Source: Acaryochloris marina MBIC11017
Lineage (GTDB): Bacteria > Cyanobacteriota > Cyanobacteriia > Thermosynechococcales > Thermosynechococcaceae
Length of the DNA: 32,000 nt
Assembly (NCBI RefSeq): GCF_000018105.1
Contig: NC_009925.1
Span: forward strand, 3,390,001-3,422,000
Reading direction: 5' to 3'
The notes under the pieces were generated by a model. That model saw only the letters and a list, made by a program, of their open reading frames with translations. It was not told the DNA's origin and searched no databases. Numbering within the stretch: the first letter of the stretch is position 1; each line of letters opens with the position of its first letter. A program made the position numbers and the translations under genes. This document shows positions 6,197-27,768 of the stretch, one piece after another.

Positions 6197-6210
6197 GGCA
6201 AACCTATATC

Positions 6211-6264
6211 TATTCTCAATAATTGAACTGAAAATCGATAGATATTTTCTATATTGAGAATCTT
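6211..6264. promoter_or_regulatory. Inverted pair of Fur-box-like cores in the divergent promoter region
   Basis: attctcaata (6212-6221) and tattgagaat (6252-6261) are exact reverse complements, 30 bp apart. They lie just upstream of the 5087-6196 gene. Confidence 0.45.
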
Positions 6265-6513
6265 AGTAGAAAAATGGGTCTGGGTTTTTCAAGCATGATA
6301 TTGAACTGAGACCCTGTAGACCCTCATATCCTAATTCCTGTGATCAAATGGAGTTGACTGGCTCTACGGGAAAAATTAGGTCGTAAAGCTGATCAGCACA
6401 TTAGCTGAAATGTTTGAATTTAAAGCACTTTAAGGATTTCTTGATCTCGTCATGCTTCGATGAGTTGGTGAAACTGATCTATTCAGCCCGGTATTTATTT
6501 TTTATGGAAACAT

Positions 6514-6581: not shown

Positions 6582-6614
6582 CTGATAAATTGAGAATTAG
6601 TCTCAATAGAATAT
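6582..6614. promoter_or_regulatory. Fur-box-like operator 30-60 nt upstream of the antenna gene start
   Basis: The sequence is ctgataaattgagaattagtctcaatagaatat. It contains ATTGAGAAT (6589-6597) and the dyad TTGAGA-attag-TCTCAA. An SD-like ggag lies at 6628-6631 and the ATG at 6642. Confidence 0.5.
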
Positions 6615-6641
6615 GCAAGATTAGTCTGGAGAATAATCTTT

Positions 6642-7688
6642 ATGCAAACCTATGGACAGCCCAAAGTTAACTATCCTTGGTATGCGGGCAATGCTCGTTA
6701 TACAGGGTTTAGTGCCCAATTCCTGGCTGCACATATCGGCCAAATTGCGTCGATGTGTTTCTTCGCTGGGACCTTTACTATCTTTGAACTCACTCGCTAC
6801 GATCCCGATTTGCCGTTATACAGTCAAAACTTTGTTTGCCTACCACAATTAGCGCGCGAAGGGTTTGGAGTTGGGTCTGGCGGAGTCATTGTAGACACCT
6901 ACGTCTACTTTGCGATTGGCATGATTCACCTGTTTGCAGCGGCTGTGTTTGCGTCGGGGGCCTTGTACCATATTGTGACTGGACCTAAGAACTTTGCGGA
7001 TAGCGAGTTCCCTGGTGTAAAGCGATTTCATTTTGAATGGGATGATTTTGCAACCCAGGGCAGGATTTTGGGGCACCATCTTCTTTTTTTAGGAGCAGGT
7101 GCATTTTTATTTACTTTCTGGGGAGCCACTCATGGCTTTTACGATCCAAGTATTGGAGAAGTTAGAGCAGTTATTCCACAATTTAATATAGTCAGATTAT
7201 TTAAATATGGATGGGCTATTCCCGGATTCAATCCGTTCTTTGTCGATAATCTTGAAGATGTGCAGATGGGCCATCTCTTTGTAGCTTTTCTATTTACGAT
7301 CGGTGGCGTTTTTCACATATTGATCAAACCGTGGCCTTATACTGACAGGCTGTACAAAAAAAATGCAGATGCAATCCTGGGGTATGCCTTAGGTGGACTC
7401 GCTTTTTTAGGGTTCAATGCTTGCTATTTTGCCGCTGTCAACGAAATTACATTTCCACCTGAATTCTTTGGTCCTGCTTTAGAGCTAAAGTTTGGAGTTG
7501 CACCTTACTTTGCCGATACGCTTGATATGGCCAAGGGGTCGCATTCGTCTCGCTTCTGGATTTGTAATTTTCACTATTTTTGGGGATTTTACTGTCTCCA
7601 AGGTCATCTATTTCATGCTTTGAGAGGTATGGGATTTGATTTTCGTAATGTCCCCAAATATTTCGAGCAATTCGCTCCTGAAGTGTAG
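6642..7688 (+). CDS. CP43'-type chlorophyll-binding antenna protein (IsiA/Pcb family), copy 1
   Basis: 348 aa, starting MQTYGQPKVNYPWYAGNARY.. It has six hydrophobic helices with the CP43/IsiA signatures GHHLLFLG, GHLFVAFLFTIGGVFHIL and FYCLQGHLFHALRG. It lacks the long CP43 lumenal loop, so its length is IsiA-like. Confidence 0.9.
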   Translation: MQTYGQPKVNYPWYAGNARYTGFSAQFLAAHIGQIASMCFFAGTFTIFELTRYDPDLPLYSQNFVCLPQLAREGFGVGSGGVIVDTYVYFAIGMIHLFAAAVFASGALYHIVTGPKNFADSEFPGVKRFHFEWDDFATQGRILGHHLLFLGAGAFLFTFWGATHGFYDPSIGEVRAVIPQFNIVRLFKYGWAIPGFNPFFVDNLEDVQMGHLFVAFLFTIGGVFHILIKPWPYTDRLYKKNADAILGYALGGLAFLGFNACYFAAVNEITFPPEFFGPALELKFGVAPYFADTLDMAKGSHSSRFWICNFHYFWGFYCLQGHLFHALRGMGFDFRNVPKYFEQFAPEV

Positions 7689-7955
7689 GTGTGGGTGGAG
7701 GATATGCTCTAACGTCTGACTAGCACGCACAGTTTTAAGAGTCCGTCTTTACGGTTCCAATCGTTAACTCAGCGTTAGCCAGGCGTTAGAGCTTGTATTG
7801 CATACGGTGGATAACTCTCTTGTTTGATAAGAGTCTTTGGCCATCCCTTATTTGCGCCACTGGGTGATGTTGGCTGAAACGATGAGGACGAAGTGTTTGG
7901 AATACACCCAATGTTTGATTTTTAGTAACGATTTACCCTATCGAGGATTTAATTT

Positions 7956-9017
7956 ATGACAGCATCTTTAACCAGACGCGACCCGATGGACAGGTCCGAG
8001 ATGACTGCGGGTACAGCGAGCTTGAGCGGTTATGAAGCGGAATGGTGGGCAGGCAATGTCCGCAACACCGATCTTTCTGGCACGCTTCTGGGTGCCCACT
8101 TATGCCATGCAGCTCTGATGAGCTGTGTTCCCGGCGCTTTTATTATTCAAGAAGCTGCTCGTTTTCAACCCGGCATACCACTATCTGAACAAGGGATGGT
8201 CTTTATGCCCCACCTGGCAGGCTTAGGGATTGCCGTGGGTTCAGGCGGAGAGATATTGAGTACGTATCCTTATTTTGTGATTGGCGTTTTGCACTTCTTT
8301 GTGGCGGCATTCTGTTGTGCGGGTGGACTATTCCACACCATTGCTGGAGAAGCGAAGCTAGGAGATTACCCTGAAGGTAGCTGGGCGGCTCAATTTGATT
8401 ATGATTGGGACGACTTTGAGTCTCTCTCTTCTATTTTGGGCCATCACCTGCTTTGTTTAGGGGTTGCTTGCCTTCTATTCGCATGCAATGCAGCCTTCGG
8501 TAATGGCTTATATGATCCATTAGTGGGTGAAGTGCGACAGATTACCCCCAACCTGAATCCGATTACTCTAGTGGGTTACTTATTCGGATTTGCCAATGGT
8601 GGATGGACACCTTTGGGAATGGCCGCAGTCGACAATATGGAAGACCTGGTTGGGGGACATTTCCTCGTCGCCATTGTTGATATTGCAGGGGCAGCCTTTC
8701 ATATCATCAACAAGAAGCCGACAGCCTTTTTCAACAATCGGCTGATCTTTTCTTTCCCCAATGGTGGGGTGACGCGTGCTGGCATTTGCAATAGCGAAGC
8801 GATCCTGTCTTATAGTGTGGCTTCCGTGGGTTTTATTGCCATTAGTTCTGCCATTTTTACCCAGTATTGCGATATCGCCTTTGCCCCTGAGTTCTACGGT
8901 ATTGATCGGTCTGGGGCTGCTTCTATCCAGCTGATTCTGGGATTGAACTGGATGGTCTTTGGTGGCCTATGGCACAGTATTCGTGGCGAAAGGCTCCATG
9001 CCCTTAAGAATAAATAG
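7956..9017 (+). CDS. Divergent CP43'/IsiA/Pcb-family chlorophyll-binding protein, copy 2
   Basis: 353 aa. It has a 25-aa N-terminal extension in place of the MQTYG start. GAHLCHAALM, GVLHFF...GGLFHTI, GHHLLCLG and GGHFLVAIVDIAGAAFHII are retained. Helix VI is degenerate (LNWMVFGGLWHSIRG). An SD-like gagga lies upstream of the ATG. Confidence 0.85.
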   Translation: MTASLTRRDPMDRSEMTAGTASLSGYEAEWWAGNVRNTDLSGTLLGAHLCHAALMSCVPGAFIIQEAARFQPGIPLSEQGMVFMPHLAGLGIAVGSGGEILSTYPYFVIGVLHFFVAAFCCAGGLFHTIAGEAKLGDYPEGSWAAQFDYDWDDFESLSSILGHHLLCLGVACLLFACNAAFGNGLYDPLVGEVRQITPNLNPITLVGYLFGFANGGWTPLGMAAVDNMEDLVGGHFLVAIVDIAGAAFHIINKKPTAFFNNRLIFSFPNGGVTRAGICNSEAILSYSVASVGFIAISSAIFTQYCDIAFAPEFYGIDRSGAASIQLILGLNWMVFGGLWHSIRGERLHALKNK

Positions 9018-9026
9018 TTCTATGGG

Positions 9027-9092
9027 CCAGCATTGAGATGTGACGTTGTTCGAGTTCAGGATAGCTCTATCTAATGCTGGTCTATGGTTTTT
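9027..9092 (+). terminator. Possible terminator hairpin after antenna copy 2
   Basis: ccagcatt (9027-9034) pairs with aatgctgg (9073-9080). The stem extends by 4 bp with one bulge. The loop is 29 nt. A T5 run lies at 9088-9092, 8 nt after the stem, which is not an ideal geometry. Confidence 0.3.
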
Positions 9093-9252
9093 GTCAGTCA
9101 CTCATGTTTCTTATCGCCTGACTCATAAGCTGAAGACATGAGAGTAGAAATATAGATTTTCACATTCATTTGTCGCAAGGAATGCCGTAAAGCAGTCGTT
9201 CTTGCTACATAGCTCTTTTTGAGCCGTTATTAATTATTTTTTGAATAGAACC

Positions 9253-10476
9253 ATGCAACTCAATATCAATCAATCTGAGTTTCCTTGGTATCAGGGCAAT
9301 AGTCGTCTGATTGATCCCTCGGTACAAGGCAAATGGCTGGCTGCACATATTTTGCAGATGGCTATCATCATGTTTTGGGTCGGCATCAACACTTTGTCCG
9401 AGAATCAAGTGTTTGATCCAGGCTTGCCCATGTATGACCAAGGCTTAGTCCTAATTCCGCATTTGGCCGCTGAAGGCTTTGGTGTCGGTGCTGGTGGAGT
9501 GGTGACTAACCCAGGAGTGTATGTCCAAGTTGCCCTGGTGCATATGGTGGCAAGTGTGGTGCTGTTTTTTGGTGCCTACTACCATGCCCAAATTGGACCT
9601 GCTGATCTGTCCCAAGGTGGACGGGGAAACACGGCCAAATTTTCCTTTGAATGGGATGATCCAAAACGGTTGGGATATATCCTGGGCAACCATTTAATCT
9701 TTATTGGTTTTGCCTCCTTGATCTTTGTCGGCTGGATAAAATATCACGGTCTGTATGACCCCACCCTAGGCGAAGTCTGTGCTGTTACTCCCTCAATGGA
9801 GAACTTTACCAATATCTATAAATATGGGTGGTCAACCCCTGGGTATAATCCGTTTTTTGTTGATAACTTAGGTGATTTGGCAGCAGGTCATTTTCTAGTG
9901 GGCCTACTGGATATTGCCGGTGGTATCTGGCATATTCTGGTTCCCCCATTTAAGTGGGAACAACGCTTGGGGGCTCGACAAGATAATTACAGCGCTGATG
10001 GCTTAATTGGCCTTTCCCTGGGTGGCGTTGCCATTATGGGTTTTATCTCGGCTTATTTCTGTGCGGTCAATACCTTTGTTTATCCAGTGGAGTTCTATGG
10101 CCCCGCTTTAGAGGTGAAGTTCAACCTTACTCCTTACTTTAAGGACACGGCGGATTTTGCTGATGGTGTGTTCAGTTCTCGGGCCTGGTTGGCCAATATC
10201 ACTTACTATTTGGGCTTCTACTGTCTGCAAGGGCATTTATTCCATAGTCTAAAAGCCATGGGTGTGAAGTTTGAAGAGATCCCCAATGCCCTCTCACAAA
10301 CTTTTGTCCAAGAGCCATCGATTATTACAGGGGCGGCTCCAACGACTGATGCTGCTCCAGAGACAAAGGAAGCGCCAGTAGATGAGACAACTCCCATGGA
10401 ATCTACCGAGTCAGTGCCAGCTGCTGAGGCTTCTCAGGCTAACGAATCGGACAGTACAGAATCACCTCAAACTTAA
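9253..10476 (+). CDS. CP43'/IsiA/Pcb-family chlorophyll-binding protein, copy 3, with a 52-aa acidic low-complexity C-terminal tail
   Basis: The track ORF starts at TTG 9241. The ATG at 9253 gives MQLNINQSEFPWYQGN, which aligns with copy 1's MQTYGQPKVNYPWYAGN. Core motifs are GNHLIFIG, GHFLVGLLDIAGGIWHIL and FYCLQGHLFHSLKA. The tail is SIITGAAPTTDAAPETKEAPVDETTPMESTESVPAAEASQANESDSTESPQT. Confidence 0.9.
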   Translation: MQLNINQSEFPWYQGNSRLIDPSVQGKWLAAHILQMAIIMFWVGINTLSENQVFDPGLPMYDQGLVLIPHLAAEGFGVGAGGVVTNPGVYVQVALVHMVASVVLFFGAYYHAQIGPADLSQGGRGNTAKFSFEWDDPKRLGYILGNHLIFIGFASLIFVGWIKYHGLYDPTLGEVCAVTPSMENFTNIYKYGWSTPGYNPFFVDNLGDLAAGHFLVGLLDIAGGIWHILVPPFKWEQRLGARQDNYSADGLIGLSLGGVAIMGFISAYFCAVNTFVYPVEFYGPALEVKFNLTPYFKDTADFADGVFSSRAWLANITYYLGFYCLQGHLFHSLKAMGVKFEEIPNALSQTFVQEPSIITGAAPTTDAAPETKEAPVDETTPMESTESVPAAEASQANESDSTESPQT

Positions 10477-10644
10477 ACAACAAGAGTTGATTTTGTAGCC
10501 TGTGGAGACGAGGTTTTTGAGAAAGGAGTGGTCAAAGTACAAGATGCCTAGATTGGACTGTACTGATTCAAACATCTCGTCTCCACTAGCATTTATTCTT
10601 GTGACTTATCCAAGAGGTGCTTGAAGAAGATGGGGGTGCCTAGA

Positions 10645-11256
10645 TTACACAGGGATGTTTTTGCGCCACCACAGGATGCCATTGAAAATTGCTCCAGCGA
10701 TAAAGAGCATAAAGGCCGGAATATTGTAGAAAGGGATGTGCTGTGCTGCAGTCCCAAAGCCAAATGCCAAGGTAAAAACGAGCCAAATATACCAGAGACC
10801 CAGCGTATATAAAATGCTCAGTCTTTTCGGAACATGGGCTTGATATAGATAATCAAAAATTGTGGGTTTTACCACTTCTGTGACTGAGAACAGCACCATA
10901 ATGATCCAGAGTGGAGCGGTCACTAGCCATGTTGTCCAAGAGCATGTTTCCCCTAGTTGATAGTACAGAACAATTTGGTAGAGATGGATGAGGTGGGATA
11001 TGGTCAAGGCCAGCCACAGATAGCTGCGATTGCTTTTGAGCCATAGCCCCAGTTTATTCGTTGTGGCGGTGAGAGGCTTGGTTACAAACACTAGCAAAAA
11101 TGGAATAGCGGTGGTTAATGAACTCAACCTTAGAGCAGTGAGAATATTGTCGCTGGTGATCTTGGGATAAAGGACCAAACCTGATGCAAGCAGCATAAAT
11201 ACTGTCGCGATAAAGACACCAGTCCAGCCCAAGAATGACTGTTTTTGGGTTCTCAT
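10645..11256 (-). CDS. Integral membrane protein of unknown function (about 6 TM helices; conserved-looking His pair ISHLIHLY)
   Basis: 203-aa ORF with an ATG start. Hydrophobic segments are spaced regularly. It might be a ferric-reductase/MsrQ-like heme-binding membrane domain, but I cannot support that beyond the His spacing. Confidence 0.55.
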   Translation of the reverse strand: MRTQKQSFLGWTGVFIATVFMLLASGLVLYPKITSDNILTALRLSSLTTAIPFLLVFVTKPLTATTNKLGLWLKSNRSYLWLALTISHLIHLYQIVLYYQLGETCSWTTWLVTAPLWIIMVLFSVTEVVKPTIFDYLYQAHVPKRLSILYTLGLWYIWLVFTLAFGFGTAAQHIPFYNIPAFMLFIAGAIFNGILWWRKNIPV

Positions 11257-11530
11257 AGCCTAGACTTTAGATAAAATCGACCGATAGTTTTATTTAAGGG
11301 ATAATTTTGGCTTTTGAAAGCTCTATCGTACCGCTTTTCTCTTGTTATAGCGAAAAATCTGCTGATTAAGGTCTAGTAAATCGGTTGAGAGTATGGGAGA
11401 CCTGTGGTGGGTTGCGATGGTCTCCGACCGGCCTTTGGCCATCGCACAATTGATACCCTCCCTCTCTCGTTGCTATTGTTCTGCAGCAGTAGCAACTTTA
11501 GCTATAAATCATCCACCTCAAATTCGCGCT

Positions 11531-11578
11531 TGATAAAGAATACCCGCAGAGTCTTCCATTCAGTAGGATTCTGCGGGT
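11531..11578 (-). terminator. Rho-independent terminator downstream of plastocyanin
   Basis: acccgcagagtc (11542-11553) pairs with gattctgcgggt (11567-11578), giving a 12-bp stem with one mismatch and a 13-nt loop. On the minus strand it is followed by auucuuuauca. It lies 73 nt after the petE stop. Confidence 0.6.
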
Positions 11579-11650
11579 AAAAGCTTATGAATTGAGAAAG
11601 GAATTTGAAAACGTTGAAATGATTAAAAAATCACTTGTGCTGATGTGGAT

Positions 11651-12052
11651 TTAGCCCTGAACCGTAATGGTACCAGTCATTCCTGCACCTCTATGAGGTT
11701 CACAGTAGTAGGCATAGGTTCCTGGAGCAGCATCAGCAGGGAAAGTCACATCAAATCCACCTGACATGGCAAAGGCTTGGTGAGATAAGCTCGCAACATC
11801 ACCTGCAGAATTACCCGGATCAAACACCACATTATGGGGAGGGACACCCGCCACTTCATAATGTACGGTATCTCCTGGCGCAATCGTCACTTCGGCCGGT
11901 TCAAACACTAGCATGCCCGTAGAAGACCCCATTTGAACGGTAGTCGTTGCAGCCAGAGCCATTGAAGAGCCAGGCCAAAAGCCACCGATGACCAGTAGCA
12001 CTGCCATTACGGTGGTTGTGAGCCCCAACAGTAAGGGTTTAATGTAGCGCAT
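11651..12052 (-). CDS. petE: Plastocyanin precursor
   Basis: Motifs are ..VPPHNVVFD.. and ..YAYYCEPHRGAGMTGTITVQG, which supply the type-1 copper ligands His, Cys, His and Met. I place the start at ATG 12052 (MRYIKPLLLGL...SSMALA signal peptide), preceded by GGAGAAAACCA. The track start at 12097 adds 15 unlikely residues. Confidence 0.9.
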   Translation of the reverse strand: MRYIKPLLLGLTTTVMAVLLVIGGFWPGSSMALAATTTVQMGSSTGMLVFEPAEVTIAPGDTVHYEVAGVPPHNVVFDPGNSAGDVASLSHQAFAMSGGFDVTFPADAAPGTYAYYCEPHRGAGMTGTITVQG

Positions 12053-12122
12053 TGGTTTTCTCCAAAGCTGAAATGAATACGTATGACAGCTTGTCATACT
12101 TAAACAGTAGCATCTCTTTTAC

Positions 12123-12148
12123 TAATTGAGAATCAATCTTAATTATTT
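12123..12148. promoter_or_regulatory. Fur-box-like site upstream of petE
   Basis: The sequence taattgagaatcaatcttaattattt contains the exact ATTGAGAAT core (12125-12133), 70 nt upstream of the petE ATG. Confidence 0.4.
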
Positions 12149-12335
12149 AAATGTCAAAAGTAGAAAAAAGTGGTTCGATCTCTGACTGATTCAGGTGTAA
12201 AGGGTTGGCCTGGGTGCTGCTGAGGCTGTCCGCACTGCCAGAAAAGTCCAACTCGAATTGGCATAGAGAAGACGGGTGAACATTCTCAGTAAAGCCAACA
12301 TTCGCATGTTGGGTAATGTAGCTATCAGCGGGCAT
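12147..12335 (-). CDS. Small hypothetical protein (62 aa); coding status uncertain
   Basis: An ATG-initiated ORF that fills the gap between the 148-aa gene and petE on the same strand. It has no clear SD and no recognisable motif. Confidence 0.3.
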   Translation of the reverse strand: MPADSYITQHANVGFTENVHPSSLCQFELDFSGSADSLSSTQANPLHLNQSEIEPLFSTFDI

Positions 12336-12350
12336 TACTCAAACCAAGGA

Positions 12351-12797
12351 TTAGAGGGACTTCTCAGAATTATCTGAGTATCCAAACAAAGCATAAACAT
12401 CCTGAAAAAATTGCTCTAACTTTTTTCTAGCCAGTAATGTTGGGGGCGATATACCATCAAAGTCCCAATCATCTGTTGTGGAGCGGCATCGCCAATAGGG
12501 TTCGGTATGGGTATAGCCCATGGATTCAATATCAATAATACGAGCATCAGCCGATTTAGGATTCTCTGAAAAGCGAATTTGAGTTAGAACACAATGACTA
12601 TGGCACGTGGGATGCCACCCTGGAAAATGGAAGCAGAGATCAATCGAGTGAGGATCGATCAAGTATCGGAGGGCAGGATCATAGATCCAGGGACTTAGAT
12701 CAGGATGGGCATCCAGAAACTGCTCTTTAAATAGGGACACAATTCGAGAGATCTTACTGAGCATTTCATAGGTCTCAGTATGGTCGGTCGCATTCAC
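12351..12797 (-). CDS. Hypothetical Cys/His-rich protein (148 aa)
   Basis: The GTG start at 12797 is preceded by AGGAG at -12 to -8. A dense potential metal-binding cluster is present: DLCFHFPGWHPTCHSHC. I recognise no family. It is the first gene downstream of the 21-bp palindrome. Confidence 0.6.
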   Translation of the reverse strand: MNATDHTETYEMLSKISRIVSLFKEQFLDAHPDLSPWIYDPALRYLIDPHSIDLCFHFPGWHPTCHSHCVLTQIRFSENPKSADARIIDIESMGYTHTEPYWRCRSTTDDWDFDGISPPTLLARKKLEQFFQDVYALFGYSDNSEKSL

Positions 12798-12827
12798 AGC
12801 TCATCACTCCTGCCAGTAATTTATGAG

Positions 12828-12874
12828 ATTTATTCTCAAGAAATAAAGTCTATCTTTATTTCTTGAGAATAAAT
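12828..12874. promoter_or_regulatory. Perfect 21-bp inverted repeat with a 5-bp spacer; candidate double Fur-type operator in a divergent promoter
   Basis: The left arm is atttattctcaagaaataaag (12828-12848), the spacer is tctat, and the right arm is ctttatttcttgagaataaat (12854-12874). The arms are exact reverse complements and each carries the ATTCTCAA core. The element lies 31 nt upstream of the 12797 start and 200 nt upstream of the aldolase ATG. Confidence 0.6.
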
Positions 12875-12991
12875 GATTCAGTCTAAATTTCATGCAAAAG
12901 TTCCGTTATTTTTAGCGTATTTAGAGATTTTTTGATGGCAAGCCTAGGATAAATACTCTCTCTTGATCCATCTATAGCTGGATGAAATGAC

Positions 12992-13020
12992 TTGACAATC
13001 CCATTTATTATTGACATTAT
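12992..13020 (+). promoter_or_regulatory. Possible sigma70-type promoter for the aldolase gene
   Basis: TTGACA (12992-12997), a 17-nt spacer, then CATTAT (13015-13020). A strong SD (AGGAGG, 13064-13069) precedes the ATG at 13076. Confidence 0.3.
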
Positions 13021-13075
13021 ATATCAATAAGCAAGAGATTTTAATTCCATCTCTGCTCAAATTAGGAGGTTCGAT

Positions 13076-14116
13076 ATGAGTACCTATGCCCAAGAGTTAA
13101 AGGCCACCGCTAAAGCCTTGGTGGCAGCAGGGAAGGGCATCTTGGCAATTGATGAGAGTAATGGCACTTGTAATAAGCGATTCGCTCAGCTCAGCATTCC
13201 TACAACGGAAGAGAATCGCAGAGCTTATCGAGAGTTAATCTTAACAACACCCCAGCTTTCTACTTACATCAGTGGCCCCATCTTGTTTGATGAGACTATT
13301 CGACAGTCCACTAGGAACGGCAAATCCTTTGTACAAGTGATTACTGAAGTGGGTATGCTTCCGGGGATTAAGGTGGACACGGGAGCTAAAGACTTGGCTG
13401 CCCATCGGGATGAAAAGGTAACGGAAGGTCTAGATGGCTTGCGCGAGCGCATTGCTGAGTACTACAGCATGGGCGCTCGGTTTGCGAAATGGCGGGCTGT
13501 GATTACCATTGGAGACGGTATTCCGAGCCAGGCTTGCATCAGTGTGAATGCCCAAGCTTTGGCCCGCTATGCGGCCCTGTGCCAAGAGGGAGGTCTCGTT
13601 CCCATCGTCGAACCCGAAGTTTTAATTGACGGTGACCATACCCTAGAACGGTGCTACCAGGTGACGGATCGCACCCTTCATGCTGTGTTTGGTCAACTCT
13701 ATGCTCAGGGAGTGGCTTTTGACCAAATGATTCTTAAACCCAGCATGGTTGTTGCGGGTAAAGAGTGCCCACAGCAGCCGAGTGTGGATGAGGTTGCTGA
13801 AGCAACCATCAATTGTCTACGCAAAAACGTGCCTGCTCCGGTTGCGGGAGTGGCCTTTTTGTCGGGTGGTCAAAGTGCTGAGCGATCCGCTGCCCACCTG
13901 AATATCATGAACGCTCGCTATGCCGGTATCTGTCCCTGGCCTGTTACCTTTTCCTATGCCCGAGCCATTCAGCAGCCAGCATTGGAGCATTGGCGGGGTG
14001 AGAGCCAGCGGGTATCTGAAGCTCAACAGCGCCTGTTGCATCGCGCCAAATGCAATAGTGCCGCCAGTCTGGGTGAATATAGCCCCGAGGTTGAGCGAGA
14101 ACTAGCCCTCGTCTAA
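13076..14116 (+). CDS. fda: Fructose-bisphosphate aldolase, class I (Schiff-base, metal-independent)
   Basis: 346 aa. The N-terminus GKGILAIDESNGTCNKRF is typical of class I aldolases. Other motifs are ..LPGIKVDTG.., ..IVEPEVLIDGDH.. and ..ILKPSMV.. (the active-site Lys region). Confidence 0.9.
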   Translation: MSTYAQELKATAKALVAAGKGILAIDESNGTCNKRFAQLSIPTTEENRRAYRELILTTPQLSTYISGPILFDETIRQSTRNGKSFVQVITEVGMLPGIKVDTGAKDLAAHRDEKVTEGLDGLRERIAEYYSMGARFAKWRAVITIGDGIPSQACISVNAQALARYAALCQEGGLVPIVEPEVLIDGDHTLERCYQVTDRTLHAVFGQLYAQGVAFDQMILKPSMVVAGKECPQQPSVDEVAEATINCLRKNVPAPVAGVAFLSGGQSAERSAAHLNIMNARYAGICPWPVTFSYARAIQQPALEHWRGESQRVSEAQQRLLHRAKCNSAASLGEYSPEVERELALV

Positions 14117-16049: not shown

Positions 16050-17134
16050 TAAGCACCTAGCTAAAATTAATTACATAATCATCGCCGTAGGCTTTCAAAA
16101 CTCTTTCCACATATTCGACCAAAGATGACCACCCCCAGTAGGCACTCATTTCAATCCACTGATATTTCATGAATTGCCACAGACGCTCAATCAAATTTAG
16201 ATGGGGAGAATAGCTTGGCAACTCAAACAAGGTAATTCCCCGTTCGGCCCACTCTGCTTTCATCTCATAGATTGATTGGCTCGTATGGATAGGGGCTTGA
16301 TCCACCACAATGACGGTGGGCAACTCCACGTCAGCAAAAAAGGTATCAATGCAATGACTGACAACCTCACTGGTGATGGTCTGTTCTGATGTATAAGCAT
16401 GTAGCCCTTGTCGTCGACTCAAAAACCCCAGAACATTCAAGCGTTTACTTGAACGAGTCGGTATTTCCAGATACGTCCCTATGGGTTGCCATCCATAGGG
16501 AATACAGGGGACTAACGAAAAACCACTCTCATCCATAAAGAATAGATGGATGTCTCCCTTCTCTTCCTGTTCCTTGAGATGTTCTAACTGCTGTTTTTTT
16601 CGAGGTAGTGGGCATATAAAGGCTGGCCTGATGTCCCTTGGCGAAAGCGATGCCAGCTCATGTCCATCTGCTTCAAGACGCGTTTAACTGTGGCCTTTGA
16701 CACGCGTACTGACCACTGTTGTTCAATCTGAGCTAACACCTGATTGAGTTGGATGGGAGATGCCTGAGTCCACTCATAAATCTGCTGTTGTTGGTCGGGA
16801 TTAAACATCGGTTTTCGACCTCGACCTGGGTGATTATAGAGTCCTGCAAATCCTCGGTTGTTCCAAGCCTTAAGCCAGTTGTAAACCGTTTTAGGACTCA
16901 CACTAAAAAGGGAGGCTAAGGTGTAGGGGGGCCAACCCTGGGCGAACAAAATGAGGCAATGGGCGCGTTGTCTGACCTGATGATGGCGACTACTGTGATA
17001 AATCCGATGCAATAAGCGTAAGCTTTCGGTGGAGATAGGACGGACTAATAACATCAAATCAATGGATGTAAACAGAGGACTCAGGTAGTTTACAACCAGG
17101 AAATTCTATGTAATTAATTTTGTTCATCTGCTTA
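16050..17134 (-). mobile_element. IS630/Tc1-family insertion sequence (~1.08 kb) flanked by TA
   Basis: The terminal inverted repeats are taagcacctagctaaaattaattacata (16050-16077) and the reverse complement of 17107-17134 (taagcagatgaacaaaattaattacata). They match at 22 of 28 positions, including a perfect inner 15-mer. A TA dinucleotide sits at both outer ends, which is the usual IS630 target. The element encloses a two-frame transposase. Confidence 0.75.
16057..17054 (-). CDS. IS630-family transposase, two frames joined by a putative programmed -1 frameshift
   Basis: orfA (17054-16584) holds the HTH domains (..SPKTVYNWLKAWNNRGFAGL..). orfB holds the DDE domain (FFMDESGF...VVDQAPIH...PSYSPHLNLIERLW). 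The minus-strand slippery run CTC GAA AAA AAC is an A7 tract (top-strand T7 at 16594-16600). A -1 slip there reads ..HYLEKKQQLEHLKEQEEKGDIHLFFMDESGF.. and gives a fusion of about 333 aa. Confidence 0.8.
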
Positions 17135-17937: not shown

Positions 17938-18079
17938 AACTTGTTGCTGCAGAGGACACCTAGACGTGTTGGTCACTGAGTCCGAGCGTACTTACGAACC
18001 AGTGAATGTAATCGGGAAGTTGCCCTACTCTGTTCTACCTCCCATATCGGTTTACAAGACGTAGTCCAGACCTATCCAG

Positions 18080-18538
18080 ATGATTTTCGATCTACCGAGT
18101 CCTTTTCAAATGCGTCCTGCGGTGGGAGGTGATGTAGAAGCATTGTTTTCGATTCACCGGTCCGCCATGCATGAGTATGTTGACCGAATTTGGGGATGGG
18201 ATGATGATTGGCAGCAAAACCAATTCTTCAAAGACTTTAATCTGCTGAATCATTGTCTTGCTATTTGCAAAGTGGATGAGCCTGTTGGATTCGTGTGTTT
18301 TCAATCTGGTCCTGATGCAATATTGATTAGGACGATTGAACTCGCTAAAGATTATCAGGGGCGTGGAATTGCCAATGCATTATTTGAACAACTGATTGAC
18401 GTTTCTGAGGACAGTGGTAAGTCAATTCAACTACAAGTATTTAAAATAAACGACCGAGCACGTTGCCTCTACGAGCGTCTGGGGTTTGTTGTCATAGGAC
18501 AAACTGAATATCATTATCAAATGGAGTTTAGGGCTTAA
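18080..18538 (+). CDS. GNAT-family N-acetyltransferase
   Basis: 152 aa. The acetyl-CoA binding motif is YQGRGIANALFEQLI, and the C-terminus has RARCLYERLGF. Confidence 0.85.
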   Translation: MIFDLPSPFQMRPAVGGDVEALFSIHRSAMHEYVDRIWGWDDDWQQNQFFKDFNLLNHCLAICKVDEPVGFVCFQSGPDAILIRTIELAKDYQGRGIANALFEQLIDVSEDSGKSIQLQVFKINDRARCLYERLGFVVIGQTEYHYQMEFRA

Positions 18539-18734
18539 ACACATTGACTGAAATCTCAGCTGTCAATGTATTCAATATTTTGGTGAACCAAAATAGGACA
18601 ATGCCCTATCAGCTTCTGAAGTTAACCATTCTAGGAATACGTACATATCAACCTTCAGGGATAAATCGCTATATTTAAATGATAATATCTCTCAATAAGA
18701 TGAGATAACAGTTTTCATAAAGACCTCACGAACT

Positions 18735-19478
18735 ATGACACAACCAAACCAAGCCATCAAGCTAGTGATGGCCCTTGGACTCACCGCTACGTTGGCAGCC
18801 TGTGGCGGAGAAACTGCAACAAATGGAGATCAAAGTCCTACCGCTGAAAGTTCACCGACGACCGAATCCCCGGAAGGAGGGGAAGAGGGCAAAGAGTATA
18901 GTGAAGGCGAAAAAGCGAATGCAGAGTTTAAGGATAAATTGAGCGGTCCTGAACTCTTGAGTGCGTTGCAAAAGGGTGGACATGTGATTTACTTCCGCCA
19001 TGCCCAAACTGAAAAAGACTATGCTGACCAAGCAGATCCAAAGATGAAGCTGGATGACTGTGAGACTCAACGGAAGCTCAATGACTTGGGAATTCAACAG
19101 TCCAAAGATATTGGAGCTGCGTTTACTGAGAAAAAGATTCCAGTGGATAAAGTGATTACGAGTGAGTACTGCCGAGCTTGGAAAACAGCAGATCTAGCGT
19201 TTGGACGACATGAGAAGAATCCTAAACTGAACTTCTTGCCCTTTGAAGACTATACGGATGAGCAAGTTGAAGAAATGAAGGCCAATGTGACGCCTTTGCT
19301 GACTGCTGCGCCAGAGGATGGCAAAAATACTGTGATTGTCGGCCATGATGATCTCTTTGAGGCTGCGACGGGTATTTATCCTGATCCTCAAGGAATTGCT
19401 TATGTACTGACACCAGATGGGAGTGGTGGTTTTACACTACAGGCCAATGTGTTACCTGATGAGTGGGCAAAACTCTAA
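18735..19478 (+). CDS. Histidine phosphatase (phosphoglycerate-mutase-like) superfamily lipoprotein
   Basis: 247 aa. It has a lipobox (LTATLAAC) and a Ser/Pro/Glu/Gly low-complexity linker. VIYFRHAQTE is an RH(G/A) catalytic motif, and VIVGHDD supplies a second His. A/T-rich gataatatctctcaataagatgagataac lies upstream at 18681-18709. Confidence 0.75.
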   Translation: MTQPNQAIKLVMALGLTATLAACGGETATNGDQSPTAESSPTTESPEGGEEGKEYSEGEKANAEFKDKLSGPELLSALQKGGHVIYFRHAQTEKDYADQADPKMKLDDCETQRKLNDLGIQQSKDIGAAFTEKKIPVDKVITSEYCRAWKTADLAFGRHEKNPKLNFLPFEDYTDEQVEEMKANVTPLLTAAPEDGKNTVIVGHDDLFEAATGIYPDPQGIAYVLTPDGSGGFTLQANVLPDEWAKL

Positions 19479-19487
19479 ATAACGATG

Positions 19488-19521
19488 GAGACCACCGTCA
19501 TTGCTAACAACGGTGGTTCTC
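19488..19521 (+). terminator. Possible terminator hairpin after the phosphatase gene
   Basis: accaccgt (19491-19498) pairs with acggtggt (19510-19517). The stem extends to 11 bp with one bulged T. No clear U-tract follows. Confidence 0.35.
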
Positions 19522-19663
19522 TATGTACTGGAATTGCGATCGCACACATGTCTCCCTGTCCATAAATCTTAGTCTTGGACGCCCTCGGCTTTACAAGCCA
19601 GTCATTCTTCGAATAGAGAATCACATCCAGTTTGGTGGCGCATAAAGCAGACATAATAGTTTA

Positions 19664-19686
19664 GATAACTGAGAATAATTTCAAAT
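19664..19686. promoter_or_regulatory. Fur-box-like site upstream of the second AraC gene
   Basis: The sequence is gataactgagaataatttcaaat (core TGAGAATAAT), 37-59 nt upstream of the ATG at 19723. Confidence 0.35.
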
Positions 19687-19722
19687 ACTATAGGTTCATT
19701 CCTGAAACCAATCACTGACGCT

Positions 19723-20748
19723 ATGCGAACCACCATCAGGGAAACAGAGCTACAAACTCTATTTGCAGAAGCTCAACAGAACGGTGAATCCATCTTTCAA
19801 CACAAAGGTTCCGATCTGCTGATCTGCCCGCCGAGTCAGGTCGGTAGTGGGCAGCATCATCTCATTACCCTACGAGATGGAATCGTATTAAAAATTGCAG
19901 ATGGGCGTTTTCACCAAACCACAACCATCGAAAGCCACAGAGGCCCTGACGAACCCCTAGTCTCTAAATTTTGTTTATCCAGTCGCTTTCAGGTACAGAC
20001 GCCTCGTGTCAGTGGTATTCCAGAAGACTATACAGAATCAGCAGGGCATCACTACTTGTTTTCCTTGTCTGATGTAGTCGAATTTGAAACCTTCCAGGGT
20101 GAAGAGCGATTTCAGGTTGTGGCGTTTGAGTGGAGCCAGGACTACGTAAGGTCTTTTATCTCTGCTGCCGATGGCCTACCCCAGCCGTTGCAGAAGCTGT
20201 CTGACCATCAGACCCTGAAGCGATTCCACCAGCCTCTGGGAAAAATGACTCCTGCAATGGCCCAGATTATTCAGCAGGTTTTGGGCTGTCCTTACCAAGG
20301 GATGGTCAAGAAGATGTATTTAGAAAGTAAGGCACTAGAACTTCTGACATTGCAGTTAACAGCTTGGAGTGAAAACCAGCACCAAACTAAGATCAGCCAG
20401 CTGCTACCCGATGATCTAGAGCGAATTCAGCAAGCCTCTCATGTGCTCAATCAGAACCTCAATGCACCCCCTTCCCTGATGGGCTTGGCACGGCAAGTGG
20501 GGCTTAATGACTACAAACTCAAACTGGGGTTTCGGCAAATGTTTGGCACCACTGTGTTTGGCTATTCACAAGCTAAACGGCTGCAGTATGCTCGGCAGTT
20601 GCTGGCAGCTCAGGATCTGAGCATTCCGGGAGTCGCTCAATCTGTGGGATATGCCAGCCCTACGTCTTTCACAGCAGCCTTCAAACGACGATTTGGCCTG
20701 AGTCCCAAAGCCTATCAAATGGCCTGCCGGGGAAAAAATCCTGTTTGA
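19723..20748 (+). CDS. AraC-family transcriptional regulator (PchR-like)
   Basis: 341 aa. The C-terminal double HTH is SLMGLARQVGLNDYKLKLGFRQMFGTTVFGYSQAKRLQYARQLL...IPGVAQSVGYASPTSFTAAFKRRFGLSPKAY. It is clearly paralogous to 3995-4984 and is followed by a TBDT. Confidence 0.9.
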   Translation: MRTTIRETELQTLFAEAQQNGESIFQHKGSDLLICPPSQVGSGQHHLITLRDGIVLKIADGRFHQTTTIESHRGPDEPLVSKFCLSSRFQVQTPRVSGIPEDYTESAGHHYLFSLSDVVEFETFQGEERFQVVAFEWSQDYVRSFISAADGLPQPLQKLSDHQTLKRFHQPLGKMTPAMAQIIQQVLGCPYQGMVKKMYLESKALELLTLQLTAWSENQHQTKISQLLPDDLERIQQASHVLNQNLNAPPSLMGLARQVGLNDYKLKLGFRQMFGTTVFGYSQAKRLQYARQLLAAQDLSIPGVAQSVGYASPTSFTAAFKRRFGLSPKAYQMACRGKNPV

Positions 20749-20778
20749 AGAGAAAACAATCCTGTTTGAAGAGAAAAA
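20737..20778 (+). repeat. Tandem 21-bp direct duplication spanning the AraC stop codon
   Basis: aatcctgtttgaagagaaaa occurs at 20737-20756 and again at 20758-20777, one base apart. The first copy contains the codons AAT CCT GTT TGA, including the stop at 20746-20748. Confidence 0.9.
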
Positions 20779-20805
20779 GCTGATGCTTCCCTCCTATCAT
20801 GCCTT

Positions 20806-20841
20806 CAGAATAATTTATTGAGATTCATTCTTGATAAATTC
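20806..20841. promoter_or_regulatory. Fur-box-like site upstream of the second TBDT
   Basis: The sequence is cagaataatttattgagattcattcttgataaattc (ATTGAGATT core, with TGATAA), 30-65 nt upstream of the ATG at 20871. Confidence 0.4.
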
Positions 20842-20870
20842 TGGCGGAAATGATGGTGTGAGGGTGTTCA

Positions 20871-23420
20871 ATGCATAGCATTAGATATCAAGCCGTTCTG
20901 ATTAGCAGCAGTGTGGCTGTACTGTTGATCGGGCCATCTGCTGGGGCTAAGCCTCCATCAGAACTAGCAGAAAGGATAGACAGGGAAGGGGCAGTTTCTA
21001 CTTTGCACCCCCAACTCAGGACCACCGTTAAAGACTGGTTGGCTCAGGCCCTTGCTCAAATTACCGATATCCAGATTAACCCGACTGAATCAGGTATAGA
21101 GCTTTTTTTAGAAGCGACCAATGCAGAATTAGCCCAGGTTTCAACCCAGCGGACTGAAAACGCACTGATTCTAGAAATTCAAAATGCTCAGCTCGTGACG
21201 GGACAAGACATCAGACGAGAGAATCCTGCGGAGGGCATCGAAAGTATCTCTCTTCAAGCCCTCACTCAAGATAGCGTCCAACTGGTTATTGTCACTACTG
21301 CGGAATCAGCCCAGATTTCCACCAGTCCCAATCGCTTGACTGTGGCTGTCAATACCATGGCCCAAACAGCTTCACCAGAGCCAACTTTAAAACAAGAGGC
21401 AGATACCGAGACTGATGAGGCAGAAATTGCGGAAGACGATGAACTAGAAATTGTGGTCACTGCAGAGAAAACCCCTGAGAATGCCCAGGATGTGCCCTTG
21501 AGCCTCACCGTATTGACAGAGCAAAATATTGAAGACGCAGATATTACGACCCTAGATGGTGTAGCCGATCGAACGCCGAACTTTACCTTTTTTCCTGCCG
21601 GTTCAAATCGAACCAGTGCGTTTTATAGTGTGCGGGGCGTCACCAACTTCAATGCGTTTAGTCGTGATGCCGTCGGATTCTTTATTGATGATGTGCCCTA
21701 TGATTTCGCCGGATTTATCGATCAAGATTTGATTGATTTAGAGCGAGTCGAAGTTCTACGGGGTCCGCAAAATACCTTGTACGGCAGAAGTTCTGCTGGC
21801 GGTGTAGTGAATATCATTAGCCGTAGACCGACCAATGATTTTGAATTTAAAGGTGCAGCTAGCTATGGTAACTTTGACGCCTTCAAAACTCAGGTTAGCG
21901 TTAGCGGTCCGATCGTAGAAAATCGGCTGCTCTTCCGCTTATCAGGGAGCTTTAGTACCCAAGATGGATTTGTCACCAATACTTTACTCAATGATGATGT
22001 GGATGGTGGGACCTACTGGACGGGGCGAGGGCAACTTTTATGGACCCCCACGGATGAGTGGGAAATTTTACTGAATGCCTCCGTCGCTGACTATCGCGAA
22101 GGGGCCGATCCATTTGTACTCGTCAAGGCGGACGATCCGTTTAATACTCAACTGAGCTTTAACGGCTTTAACGATTTGGTCACTAATGCCCAATCCCTCC
22201 GAATTGCCTACAATACCTCAGATATTCGCGTCACATCCATCACCGCCCATCGCTTCTCAAGTCAGAAGGCAGCCTTTGACCAGGACGGCAGCGTTGCTAA
22301 TATTCTGATTAATGCCCCCGATTTTTCGTCGCGAGTCATTTCCCAAGAAATTCGGGTCCAGTCCCCAGAAGAAAGCGACCGTTTCCAGTGGATTTTAGGG
22401 GGCTACTTCGAACGGTCTACCTTTGATAATCAGCGTGATTTTATCTCTGGTACTGATGTGCCTCCAGCAAACCAGGGTACCCTGCGCTCAGACGGAGATA
22501 GTGTCAGCAGAAGTTTAGCGGCATTTGGGCAGGCGAGCTATAACGTCTCAGACAAGCTGACCCTGACCGCTGGCCTGCGCTATGAAGACACCCTAGCGTC
22601 CATCGATTACACTCAAACCTTTATCTCGCCGGATGGCGCATTTGTTTTACCCGTTCTGCAACTGAACAATATTGAGATTAGTGGATCTGAACTGTTGCCC
22701 CGGTTTGCGGTTGATTATCGTTTTACGCCGAATCTAACGGCTTATGGCAGTATCACCCGAGGCTATCGTCCGCCAGGTGCAAGTTTTGAACCCAATGATG
22801 AATCGACTGCAGTATTTGAAGCGGAAACATCCTGGAACTATGAAGTCGGTCTGAAAACATCCTGGTTAGAAAATCGGTTAATTCTAAATGTCAGCGGATT
22901 TTATAACGATACATCTAACTTTCAGTTTCCCAGCATTCAAAATGGAGTGGCGCTAGTTGACAATGCCGATATTCGCTCCATTGGCGGGGAACTGGAGTTA
23001 ATTGCTCGACCCATAGAAGGTTTAGAACTGAGTGCTGGCTTAGGACTACTCAACTCAGAGTTTCGCAATGGAGCGGATGCATTTACAGGAACGGCTTTAC
23101 AAGGCAATCGCACTCCCCTGACACCGAATCTGACTTATAATATCGCTGCTCAATACCGTAGCGAAATTGGCATTCTCAGCCGATTAGAGCTGATTGGGGT
23201 CGGCAGCACCTTTTTTGATGAACTGAATAGTATTGAGCAAGAACCCTTTGTTTTAGTGAATGTTCGCCTTGGCTATGAGTCTGATAACTATGGAATTTAT
23301 CTATTTGCAAATAACCTCTTTGACACCCAATACCTGACTCAATCCTTTGACTTTGGCAATAGGATTGGTATCTTTGGTGCTCCCAGAACAATAGGGGTAC
23401 AAGTCAGAGCTAATTTTTAG
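20871..23420 (+). CDS. TonB-dependent outer-membrane receptor with an N-terminal AMIN-like domain
   Basis: 849 aa with a signal peptide. The AMIN-like segment is ITDIQINPTESGIELFLEA...VQLVIVTT, followed by an acidic linker and a TonB box (DDELEIVVTAEKT). The plug motif is ERVEVLRGPQNTLYGRSSAGGVVNIISR. The C-terminus is ..GVQVRANF. Confidence 0.9.
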   Translation: MHSIRYQAVLISSSVAVLLIGPSAGAKPPSELAERIDREGAVSTLHPQLRTTVKDWLAQALAQITDIQINPTESGIELFLEATNAELAQVSTQRTENALILEIQNAQLVTGQDIRRENPAEGIESISLQALTQDSVQLVIVTTAESAQISTSPNRLTVAVNTMAQTASPEPTLKQEADTETDEAEIAEDDELEIVVTAEKTPENAQDVPLSLTVLTEQNIEDADITTLDGVADRTPNFTFFPAGSNRTSAFYSVRGVTNFNAFSRDAVGFFIDDVPYDFAGFIDQDLIDLERVEVLRGPQNTLYGRSSAGGVVNIISRRPTNDFEFKGAASYGNFDAFKTQVSVSGPIVENRLLFRLSGSFSTQDGFVTNTLLNDDVDGGTYWTGRGQLLWTPTDEWEILLNASVADYREGADPFVLVKADDPFNTQLSFNGFNDLVTNAQSLRIAYNTSDIRVTSITAHRFSSQKAAFDQDGSVANILINAPDFSSRVISQEIRVQSPEESDRFQWILGGYFERSTFDNQRDFISGTDVPPANQGTLRSDGDSVSRSLAAFGQASYNVSDKLTLTAGLRYEDTLASIDYTQTFISPDGAFVLPVLQLNNIEISGSELLPRFAVDYRFTPNLTAYGSITRGYRPPGASFEPNDESTAVFEAETSWNYEVGLKTSWLENRLILNVSGFYNDTSNFQFPSIQNGVALVDNADIRSIGGELELIARPIEGLELSAGLGLLNSEFRNGADAFTGTALQGNRTPLTPNLTYNIAAQYRSEIGILSRLELIGVGSTFFDELNSIEQEPFVLVNVRLGYESDNYGIYLFANNLFDTQYLTQSFDFGNRIGIFGAPRTIGVQVRANF

Positions 23421-23565
23421 AGCCTATTGTGTCAGGAAGACTCTAGAGACGAAGCCGATAGTTCGTCAGTTTCCCTCTAACGCACTCTCAGTCCTGCTTA
23501 GACAATAGAGAAAGCCAGGCTATCAATTGATTGCAGCCCCAGTTAATTCGTTGGAGACACAGTTT

Positions 23566-24120
23566 ATGAAGCTCAAACAATGGTTCGCTACATGGTCTCG
23601 CAAAATCCATCGCTGGATTGGTCTATATTTCGCCGTGATTGTTGTTCTTTACCTGGTTGAATCTTTGACATTGCCAGCCATTTATGGAGAAGGCTTACCA
23701 ACGGTTGATGGCACCCCTCCGACTAATGCCGTGACTAGTACGGAACCGCTCCTCTCGCAACAACAAGCGATTCAGCGATTACTAGAGCAACAGCCTCAAG
23801 GCATTCATGCTTTAGAAGATATCAACGAAATCACCTACCTACCGAAGGAAGATCTCTATCGATTGGCCAATAGCGATCGCTTTTTTGAGTGGTATATCGA
23901 TAGTCATACGGGAGAATTGCTCAAGCATGGTTTTAAAATCGCTCCCTATCTGGAAGAGCAAACCCTACTCGGTTGGTGGAGTCCTTGGGCTCATGCCATT
24001 TTGGAAGTGCCAGGGCTGTTGTTGATGATCGTGTTAGCGGTGAGTGGCGTGTATATGTTTATTCTCCCTTTTTTGCCTAAAACGGAACCGGATTCGAGTC
24101 CCTGGGTATTACCAAAGTAG
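23566..24120 (+). CDS. PepSY-domain membrane protein (short PiuB/FoxB-like)
   Basis: I start it at ATG 23566, preceded by GGAG (23553-23556). SRKIHRWIGLYFAVIVVLYL is a PepSY-associated TM helix motif. A central PepSY-like segment (ITYLPKEDLYRLANSDRFFEWYIDSHTGELL) and a C-terminal TM helix follow. It sits directly after a TBDT, as is usual for this family. Confidence 0.7.
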   Translation: MKLKQWFATWSRKIHRWIGLYFAVIVVLYLVESLTLPAIYGEGLPTVDGTPPTNAVTSTEPLLSQQQAIQRLLEQQPQGIHALEDINEITYLPKEDLYRLANSDRFFEWYIDSHTGELLKHGFKIAPYLEEQTLLGWWSPWAHAILEVPGLLLMIVLAVSGVYMFILPFLPKTEPDSSPWVLPK

Positions 24121-24217
24121 CGGTATCAGACAGGGAGAGCTACAGGAAATTTACAAGAAGAGCCTCCATACCTGGGTATTCGGGTTTTCAACTGCAATCT
24201 CCATTGATCAACATCTT

Positions 24218-24904
24218 ATGAGACATCAGAACAACGTTCTGAGGGACCCAAAAGTTGAAGCGGTCCTAGAACGCCTGCACCATACTGCTGATCGACAAGC
24301 CTTGAAGCTTTTTCTGCATTATCTGCCTCAGCTTCCCAGACTATTCTTGGGCCAAGGCATTCACTGGAATCCTGATCGGACCCATTTTTATCGCGATAAA
24401 TACATTCCGATAGAGCGGGAGCAAGGCCAGTTACTCTATTTATTAGCTCGGGCTATCAATGCCCAAACCATTGTGGAATTTGGTAGTTCCTATGGGGTTT
24501 CAACCCTCTATTTAGCCACAGCCATTCGGGATAATGGTCAGGGTAAAGTGATTGGCACCGAAATCGTTCCAGAAAAAGTGATTCAAGCCCGACAACATAT
24601 TGTCGAGGCTGGTCTAACGGAGTTTGTGGATTTGCGGGAAGGGGATGCCTTGAAAACCTTACAGGATATCGACGGCTCCATAGATTTGGTGTTGATGGAT
24701 GGGTATCCACATTTGGCCTTGGATATTTTAAGGTTGCTGCACCCTCAGATTCGTCAGGGTGGCCTGGTTATTTCAGACAATGTAGGTACGTTCAAAACAG
24801 CTTTAAATTCCTACGTCGAGTTTTTACGGACTCCTAGTCATGGCTATCGTTCGGCAACATTGCCGTTAAAGGGAGGGACTGAGTTGTCGATCAAGGCTGG
24901 CTAG
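24218..24904 (+). CDS. Class I SAM-dependent O-methyltransferase (family 3 / YrrM-MdmC-like)
   Basis: I start it at ATG 24218. The track's GTG at 24044 would overlap the PepSY gene. Motifs are IVEFGSSYGVSTLYLATAI (SAM motif I), GKVIGTEI and IDLVLMDG. Confidence 0.8.
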   Translation: MRHQNNVLRDPKVEAVLERLHHTADRQALKLFLHYLPQLPRLFLGQGIHWNPDRTHFYRDKYIPIEREQGQLLYLLARAINAQTIVEFGSSYGVSTLYLATAIRDNGQGKVIGTEIVPEKVIQARQHIVEAGLTEFVDLREGDALKTLQDIDGSIDLVLMDGYPHLALDILRLLHPQIRQGGLVISDNVGTFKTALNSYVEFLRTPSHGYRSATLPLKGGTELSIKAG

Positions 24905-26629: not shown

Positions 26630-26705
26630 CGCCCGACTACTAGGTTGCTAAAGATTCGCAAAGCTCATTGATCTAGTCAGCAGCTATGGATGCAGGCTAC
26701 TTGTC

Positions 26706-27754: not shown

Positions 27755-27768
27755 TATTCTCAATAATT
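27755..27768. promoter_or_regulatory. Fur-box-like site in the 380-bp A/T-rich spacer upstream of the TPR-like gene
   Basis: tattctcaataatt is identical to the 14-mer at 6211-6224. TTATCAGaaataaTTATCAG also lies at 27531-27550. Confidence 0.3.

Follow-up and report, generated by a model that had tools for sequence, protein, structure and literature searches.

We conclude, with a probability of roughly two in three, that the functional core of the promoter region upstream of the 148-aa gene is a Fur-type operator at positions 12822–12840 and that the perfect 21-bp palindrome overlapping it is a strain-specific by-product of a template switch. Positions refer to the window, that is, the whole 32-kb stretch of DNA that was analyzed. 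The earlier note had proposed the 47-bp dyad formed by this palindrome as the operator. This was not borne out: the axis of the dyad lies at 12851 and that of the box at 12831, an offset of 20 bp, and the distal arm of the dyad is not conserved. A Fur operator identical with the 47-bp dyad would share its axis and have both arms conserved, and neither feature was found; in contrast, the sequence match, the regulon context, and the fixed position in orthologs expected of a Fur-type operator were all found at 12822–12840. Judging from the sequence, Fur would be the binding protein, repression would occur by occlusion, and the gene would respond to iron.

The window is an iron-stress and iron-uptake island, as read from its gene content. 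It contains genes for TonB-dependent receptors (1056–3749 and 20871–23420, with a fragment at 31040–31996), three isiA-like genes (6642–10476), and a plastocyanin-like gene (11651–12052/12097). Two AraC-family regulators, a sucrase/ferredoxin-like protein, class I aldolase, and a periplasmic binding protein are also encoded, as are an MFS transporter, PepSY_TM, methyltransferases, and an IS630-type transposase. The DNA is cyanobacterial, as indicated by its PSII/CP43-like genes and by six copies of the HIP1 octamer (GCGATCGC), compared with about 0.5 expected. The third isiA-like ORF (9241–10476) is 411 aa long, compared with 348 and 353 aa, and its PSII-domain match stops at residue 289, indicating a C-terminal extension. 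The IS630-type element (16055–17132; DDE_3 and HTH ORFs at 16057–17057) lies between two methyltransferase genes and is absent from the related locus L001, in which the flanks are contiguous. Relative to L001, the window also has extra DNA of approximately 8.8 kb at 17960–26751, containing GNAT, histidine phosphatase, the second AraC regulator (AraC2), the second TonB-dependent receptor, PepSY_TM, methyltransferase, and FAD monooxygenase genes, as well as most of the MFS transporter gene (approximately 28116–29223). Therefore, the iron-uptake modules vary between close relatives.

The published FurA consensus of Anabaena is 5'-AAATAAATTCTCAATAAAT-3' (PMC4005646), in agreement with the earlier note. 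In Synechocystis, the Fur motif is a 21–23-nt, AT-rich sequence, palindromic around one central base, and is usually located between −100 and +50 relative to the transcription start (PMC8634477). In the window, the motif takes the form of a 19-bp AT-rich inverted repeat, ATTGAGAAT-N-ATTCTCAAT. The word ATTCTCAA occurs 11 times, compared with 2.1 expected; seven of these occurrences are intergenic, two of them being the arms of the dyad itself. When up to three mismatches were allowed, TGAGAATNATTCTCA had 12 matches in the window, compared with 1.8 expected from shuffles, and nine of the 12 were intergenic, although intergenic DNA accounts for only 20% of the window. The intergenic matches are all located shortly 5' of a gene start, at a distance of 28–52 nt in seven cases (including the 148-aa gene) and 86 nt upstream of the first receptor gene. 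They occur at 3835 (receptor gene), 5029 (AraC), 6591 (first isiA-like gene), 12127 (plastocyanin-like gene), 12824 (148-aa gene, with one mismatch), 18680 (histidine-phosphatase gene), 19670 (AraC2), 20819 (second receptor), and 27748 (in the 27484–27864 spacer). Boxes of the TGAGAAT-N-ATTCTCA type precede at least nine genes of the island. Even when the palindrome was masked, ATTGAGA/TCTCAAT remained the most over-represented intergenic 7-mer, with 14 occurrences compared with 1.15 expected. Furthermore, the ten window positions that share at least 14 of 19 bases with the Anabaena consensus were all intergenic, and nine of them coincided with a Fur-type word, the exception being 26929. These counts uphold the proposal that the core of each dyad arm is a FurA-box-like word that recurs upstream of iron-stress genes.

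The best Fur-type box of the window (ATTGAGAATTAGTCTCAAT, 6589–6607), which serves here as the reference example, scored 24.7 bits and lies 35 nt upstream of the first isiA-like gene. The palindromic position weight matrix (PWM) used for scoring was built from the eight other boxes alone, with the site under study left out. A position within the fda coding region (13227–13245, ATCGAGAGTTAATCTTAAC) scored 15.1 bits with this matrix, above the operator at 12822–12840, and is either a chance match that limits the specificity of the matrix or an internal site. Just upstream of the sucrase/ferredoxin-like gene (6202–6271), two outward-facing half-sites, ATTCTCAAT at 6212 and ATTGAGAAT at 6253, lie 41 bp apart; their orientation is the same as in the dyad, and the intervening sequence is unrelated.

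The operator of the 148-aa gene (TATGAGATTTATTCTCAAG, 12822–12840) has a 7-1-7 core, TGAGATT-T-ATTCTCA (12824–12838), with a single mismatch to TGAGAATNATTCTCA, and shares 15 of 19 positions with the Anabaena FurA consensus. In the leave-one-out matrix, it scored 13.7 bits, the second-best value among the non-training positions of the 32 kb and lower than that of any of the eight training boxes. It carries a G-to-T change in the left half-site and poor outermost positions, with four mismatches to the 19-mer. The box has 13 bp in common with the proximal arm of the palindrome, and its remaining 6 bp lie outside the palindrome. Comparison with seven orthologous loci placed it in a block that is invariant in all eight aligned sequences: besides the start codon and the Shine-Dalgarno sequence, the invariant columns of the spacer covered 12821–12839. 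Variation among the orthologs, which have TGAGAAT-A/T-A/TATCTCA, is limited to the low-information central bases. The distance from the end of the box to the start codon was 24–25 nt in six lineages, including L001, L004, L005, L006, and L007. Because the box ends 24 nt upstream of the GTG, it very likely overlaps the core promoter or the transcription start of the 148-aa gene, as judged from position. A sigma-70 scan of the minus strand near the box returned no promoter for this gene; by eye, TAAATT and GAGAAT are candidate −10 hexamers, neither of which is favored.

The 148-aa gene (12351–12797, minus strand) starts with GTG at 12797, preceded by a GGAG Shine-Dalgarno sequence at 12807–12810; neither the start codon nor the Shine-Dalgarno sequence nor the N-terminus MNATDHT varies among its orthologs. 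The protein had no Pfam match; it belongs to an uncharacterized family of approximately 145 aa, for which a profile search found 99 representative clusters. The conserved residues of the family are M1-N2-A3, P36, W37, D53, W102, and G115, of which P36, D53, W102, and G115 are invariant; the Cys/His cluster that had been used to characterize the protein is not conserved in the family. A confident AlphaFold model (pLDDT 89.8, pTM 0.83) consists of a helix, a five-stranded sheet, and a helix, and a fold search of the PDB with this model gave no significant match (best E = 0.12, TM 0.30). Divergent pairing of the family with fda was found in L001, L004, L007, L010, L013, and L014, down to 39–47% protein identity. 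In L016 and L017, the family member has other neighbors, and L015 is too short for the pairing to be judged. The family and class I aldolase could be functionally linked in one cyanobacterial subclade. The distant homologs (L010–L012, with 39% identity, and L015, L016, and L017) had no clear box, and some are not beside fda, suggesting that the regulatory link is limited to the near clade and to L013/L014, where the box is weak (7.5 bits).

The palindrome itself is as exact as the earlier note had described. The arms at 12828–12848 (ATTTATTCTCAAGAAATAAAG) and 12854–12874 (CTTTATTTCTTGAGAATAAAT) are complementary at 21 of 21 positions and enclose a 5-nt spacer, TCTAT (12849–12853). No other inverted repeat in the window is as strong, the runner-up being a perfect 17-bp pair at 26706–26747. 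In 25 dinucleotide-preserving shuffles (spacer 0–20), the longest perfect stem was 8–12 bp, compared with the 21 bp observed. As single-stranded DNA, the dyad forms a hairpin of −18.6 kcal/mol (z = −10.9), and as RNA, the two strands fold with −27.8 and −30.2 kcal/mol (z = −5.8 and −7.3). The stem is 81% A+T, and each arm is a near-palindrome on its own (TTTATTCT-CA-AGAAATAAA); the ATTCTCAA cores of the two arms lie 31 bp apart, or approximately three helical turns. The position attributed to the dyad also holds, with a gap of 30 nt to the GTG at 12797 and of 201 nt to the fda ATG at 13076, which places it within the promoter region of the 148-aa gene. The argument that a perfect 21-bp dyad has a chance of 4^-21 rules out coincidence, but it does not prove selection because a one-step template switch can yield a perfect dyad. 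The 17-bp repeat at 26706–26747 has an 8-nt loop and lies between the convergent genes 25238–26629 (plus strand) and 26995–27483 (minus strand), where it is probably a bidirectional terminator. In L003, the public assembly contig ends within the palindrome (L003 1–25, corresponding to window position 12857 onward), and the sequence at the contig break (GTGTGCTCTTCCGATCT) resembles an Illumina adapter; the break and the adapter-like sequence within the palindrome suggest that the hairpin disrupts assembly or library preparation.

The exact 148-aa protein and four diverged homologs (76–93% identity) were located on assembled contigs. L002 and L003 were 100% identical to the window and thus represent the same strain, while identity was approximately 91% in L001 and 82–88% in L004. 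The proximal arm (12828–12848) shows 100% identity between the window and L001, with L004 almost identical; its outer 13 bp form the right part of the Fur-type box, and its inner 10 bp (AGAAATAAAG) are kept in near relatives and may be part of the promoter. The distal arm (12854–12874), a strain-specific inverted copy of the proximal arm that contains one FurA-consensus-like half-site (TTGAGAAT), is perfect only in the window and L002/L003; in L001 it is degenerate, and L004, L006, and L007 lack it. In L001, the distal side reads ATTTA-AATC-AGAAATAAAG, giving a perfect inner stem of 10 bp, a 4 × 6 internal loop, and five outer pairs. L004, L006, and L007 keep a short AAAGATCTTT/ATAAAGATCTTTAT core or nothing; the outer arm is missing, and the distal sequence is barely alignable.

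The 26 nt comprising the distal arm and spacer of the window are eight edits away from the collinear sequence of L001, but only one edit away from the reverse complement of the L001 spacer plus proximal arm. The spacer, TCTAT in the window, is inverted relative to this sister lineage: on the minus strand of the window it reads ATAGA, while L001 has TCCAT, whose reverse complement, ATGGA, differs by one base. The window and L001 do not differ in the 55 nt that run from the proximal arm to the GTG, while the remaining approximately 215 nt of the intergenic spacer contain 12 substitutions. Homogenization of the arms together with inversion of the spacer is the described mark of template switching (PMC8604942, PMC13100816, PMC8794818), and both were found here, the edit distance of arm plus spacer falling from eight to one. 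The difference in edit distance is thus the signature of a replication template switch, and the perfect dyad would be the product of a single such event in the lineage of the window strain, making its symmetry mutational in origin. Because template switching cannot turn a perfect repeat into an imperfect one, the event is best placed in the lineage of the window. In L001, the outer ATTTA is still in register, indicating that a long imperfect repeat was already present in the common ancestor; this repeat is probably the product of a similar, earlier event. Parsimony from two lineages, with outgroups that are poorly alignable in the distal stretch, suggests the direction of the switch, and the perfect dyad could in principle have been retained from the ancestor rather than re-made.

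A reading in which selection has made the full 47-bp dyad a double operator of high affinity (for two Fur dimers on inverted sites or for Fur polymerizing across both arms) or a cruciform, tightening repression of the 148-aa gene or coupling it to fda, has several observations in its favor. Within the window, each arm ranks among the ten positions that best match the Anabaena FurA consensus (15/19 for the site at the proximal arm and 14/19 for the distal arm), their cores are spaced by about three helical turns, and the hairpin is very stable for its composition. Furthermore, the pair of half-sites at 6212 and 6253 faces outward in a similar manner, and twin Fur boxes in divergent promoters are not only known but have been called a hallmark of Fur regulation (PMC8634477). 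We nevertheless consider this reading unlikely. In every other lineage, the distal arm is either degenerate or missing, whereas the off-axis box is invariant; no full palindromic box is centered on the distal arm, where the best score of the palindromic PWM was 0.16 bits, reflecting the lack of a second half-site; and a single mutational event suffices to explain the perfection of the dyad. Therefore, the symmetry of the dyad does not appear to be a conserved design for two back-to-back dimers. A second Fur site at the distal arm is possible in the window strain, given its resemblance to the consensus. That the template switch gave birth to such a FurA-consensus-like site, recruiting extra Fur or favoring a cruciform and thereby shifting the iron threshold of the 148-aa gene, is an improbable extension of this idea; if true, it would represent the birth or duplication of a bacterial operator by template switching, caught in the act.

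Coupling with fda is opposed by the organization of the aldolase promoter. [quoted passage not shown] This box was found at the same position in L001, L004, and L007 (18.1 bits; ATTGATATATATTCTCAAT) and in L013/L014 (11.6 bits), the latter being relatives with 47% protein identity. The −35 element of fda is located 117 nt beyond the dyad, and approximately 110 nt of non-conserved sequence separate the two modules. The suggestion that the dyad controls both divergent units is therefore unlikely, as fda has its own conserved promoter and Fur-like box (12992–13028). No report of a cyanobacterial class I aldolase being controlled by Fur or iron was found in a literature search, which returned only papers on diatoms.

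The plastocyanin-like gene has a Fur-type box of its own at 12125–12143 (ATTGAGAATCAATCTTAAT), with two mismatches to the 19-mer consensus, and this box and the upstream TTGACA are kept in L001 and L004. The joint unit of the 148-aa gene and an orphan petE gene that had been assumed is thus doubtful and probably consists of two transcription units. Between the box and the start codon of the plastocyanin-like gene lies a conserved 8-bp hairpin (GTATGACA-N3-TGTCATAC, 12081–12099, minus strand), which the scan rated terminator-like and which may be either an element of the 5' leader or a terminator for the 148-aa gene upstream.

The conserved box could instead be the operator of another regulator, such as Zur/FurB, PerR/FurC, an AraC protein of the island, or another iron or redox regulator. 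Several cyanobacterial Fur paralogs share similar 7-1-7 AT-rich boxes (PMC4005646), and the window contains two AraC genes. On the other hand, the FurA consensus has half-sites of the same GAGAAT/ATTCTC type, and the genes marked by the box include those for TonB-dependent receptors and the isiA-like genes, classic targets of iron regulation. Activators of the AraC type typically recognize direct repeats close to −35. No such repeat was seen at the box, and the AraC genes carry the box themselves, suggesting that these genes lie downstream of it. For these reasons, we regard control by a regulator other than Fur as quite unlikely.

The element might also act as an RNA hairpin, that is, as a 5'-UTR stabilizer or attenuator of the 148-aa mRNA, a terminator, or a small RNA, and both strands do fold well; however, this is very unlikely because the 81% A+T stem has no T-run on either strand, the dyad sits between divergent starts, and the hairpin lacks both conservation and compensatory changes. 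The intrinsic terminator scan did not call the dyad, and Rfam (E-value mode) returned only sub-threshold matches to miRNA precursors, which are typical of any perfect hairpin. Least likely of all is an inserted MITE- or REP-type dispersed repeat: perfect palindromes of this size are typical of such elements and the window does contain a strain-specific IS630-type insertion, but all relatives have the proximal arm as part of a conserved, orthologous promoter, with neither presence or absence of the whole element nor a target-site duplication. The search for further arm copies proposed in the earlier note likewise revealed no dispersed repeat: the 21-mer had no other copy in the 32-kb window with up to three mismatches, the related loci had no further copy, and an exact search of 596 Gb of reference genomes, excluding the source genome, gave only two single-arm chance matches in unrelated phyla.

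With a Fur-type operator at 12822–12840 as the functional core, the following mechanism can be proposed. Under iron sufficiency, a Fur-Fe2+ dimer bound at 12822–12840 would block RNA polymerase at the 148-aa gene; under iron starvation, Fur would leave, and the gene would be expressed along with the rest of the island, that is, the TonB-dependent receptors, AraC regulators, three isiA-like genes, plastocyanin-like gene, and class I aldolase, all of which have boxes of their own. Beside the box, an older, imperfect inverted repeat would have been homogenized by one replication template switch, which placed a copy of the proximal arm, and with it half of the Fur box, on the other side and inverted the 5-nt spacer. 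The distal arm would contribute at most one extra half-site in the window strain. If this reading is right, the Fur regulon gains one more gene, encoding an uncharacterized 148-aa protein paired with class I aldolase. It also implies that a perfect promoter palindrome far beyond chance expectation may be the product of a one-step mutation and is not proof of design, which calls for caution in motif hunting. The window strain and a strain of the L001 type would then constitute a natural experiment on the effect of an extra inverted half-site on Fur control. The wider island probably matters more than the dyad, since isiA-like, plastocyanin-like, and metal-independent aldolase genes stand behind the same box.

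The box is of the known cyanobacterial Fur type, and the palindrome falls within the known class of template-switch products. Like the Fur boxes described in cyanobacteria (PMC4005646, PMC8634477), the present box is an inverted repeat, rich in A and T, that has a single central base and a core of ATTCTCA/TGAGAAT and is located near a gene start in an iron-stress cluster with divergent promoters and one box per direction; here, however, the site is putative, one half-site is degenerate (TGAGATT), and the box is embedded in a 47-bp palindrome whose axis lies 20 bp away. Twin or multiple Fur boxes are known from bidirectional promoters such as that of tonB/exbB1D1 in Synechocystis, which has four (PMC8634477), and the present locus similarly has two divergent iron-island genes with Fur-like boxes approximately 190 bp apart. 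It differs in that each box is near its own gene with non-conserved DNA in between, and the palindrome is not a shared central operator. As in reported template-switch mutations (PMC8604942, PMC13100816, PMC8794818, PMC7202029), the changes are clustered in one arm and the spacer, all but one of them are explained by copying of the opposite arm, the spacer is inverted, and the outcome is a longer perfect repeat beside a transcription-factor site, as in yeast promoters; in contrast to those cases, the event suggested here, from two lineages, occurred in a cyanobacterial promoter and copied half of a Fur-type box. Finally, plastocyanin and class I fructose-bisphosphate aldolase belong to the low-iron substitution set of oceanic diatoms (PMC3491386), which resembles the plastocyanin-like gene, the metal-independent class I aldolase, and the isiA-like genes that stand behind Fur-type boxes at 6589–14116.
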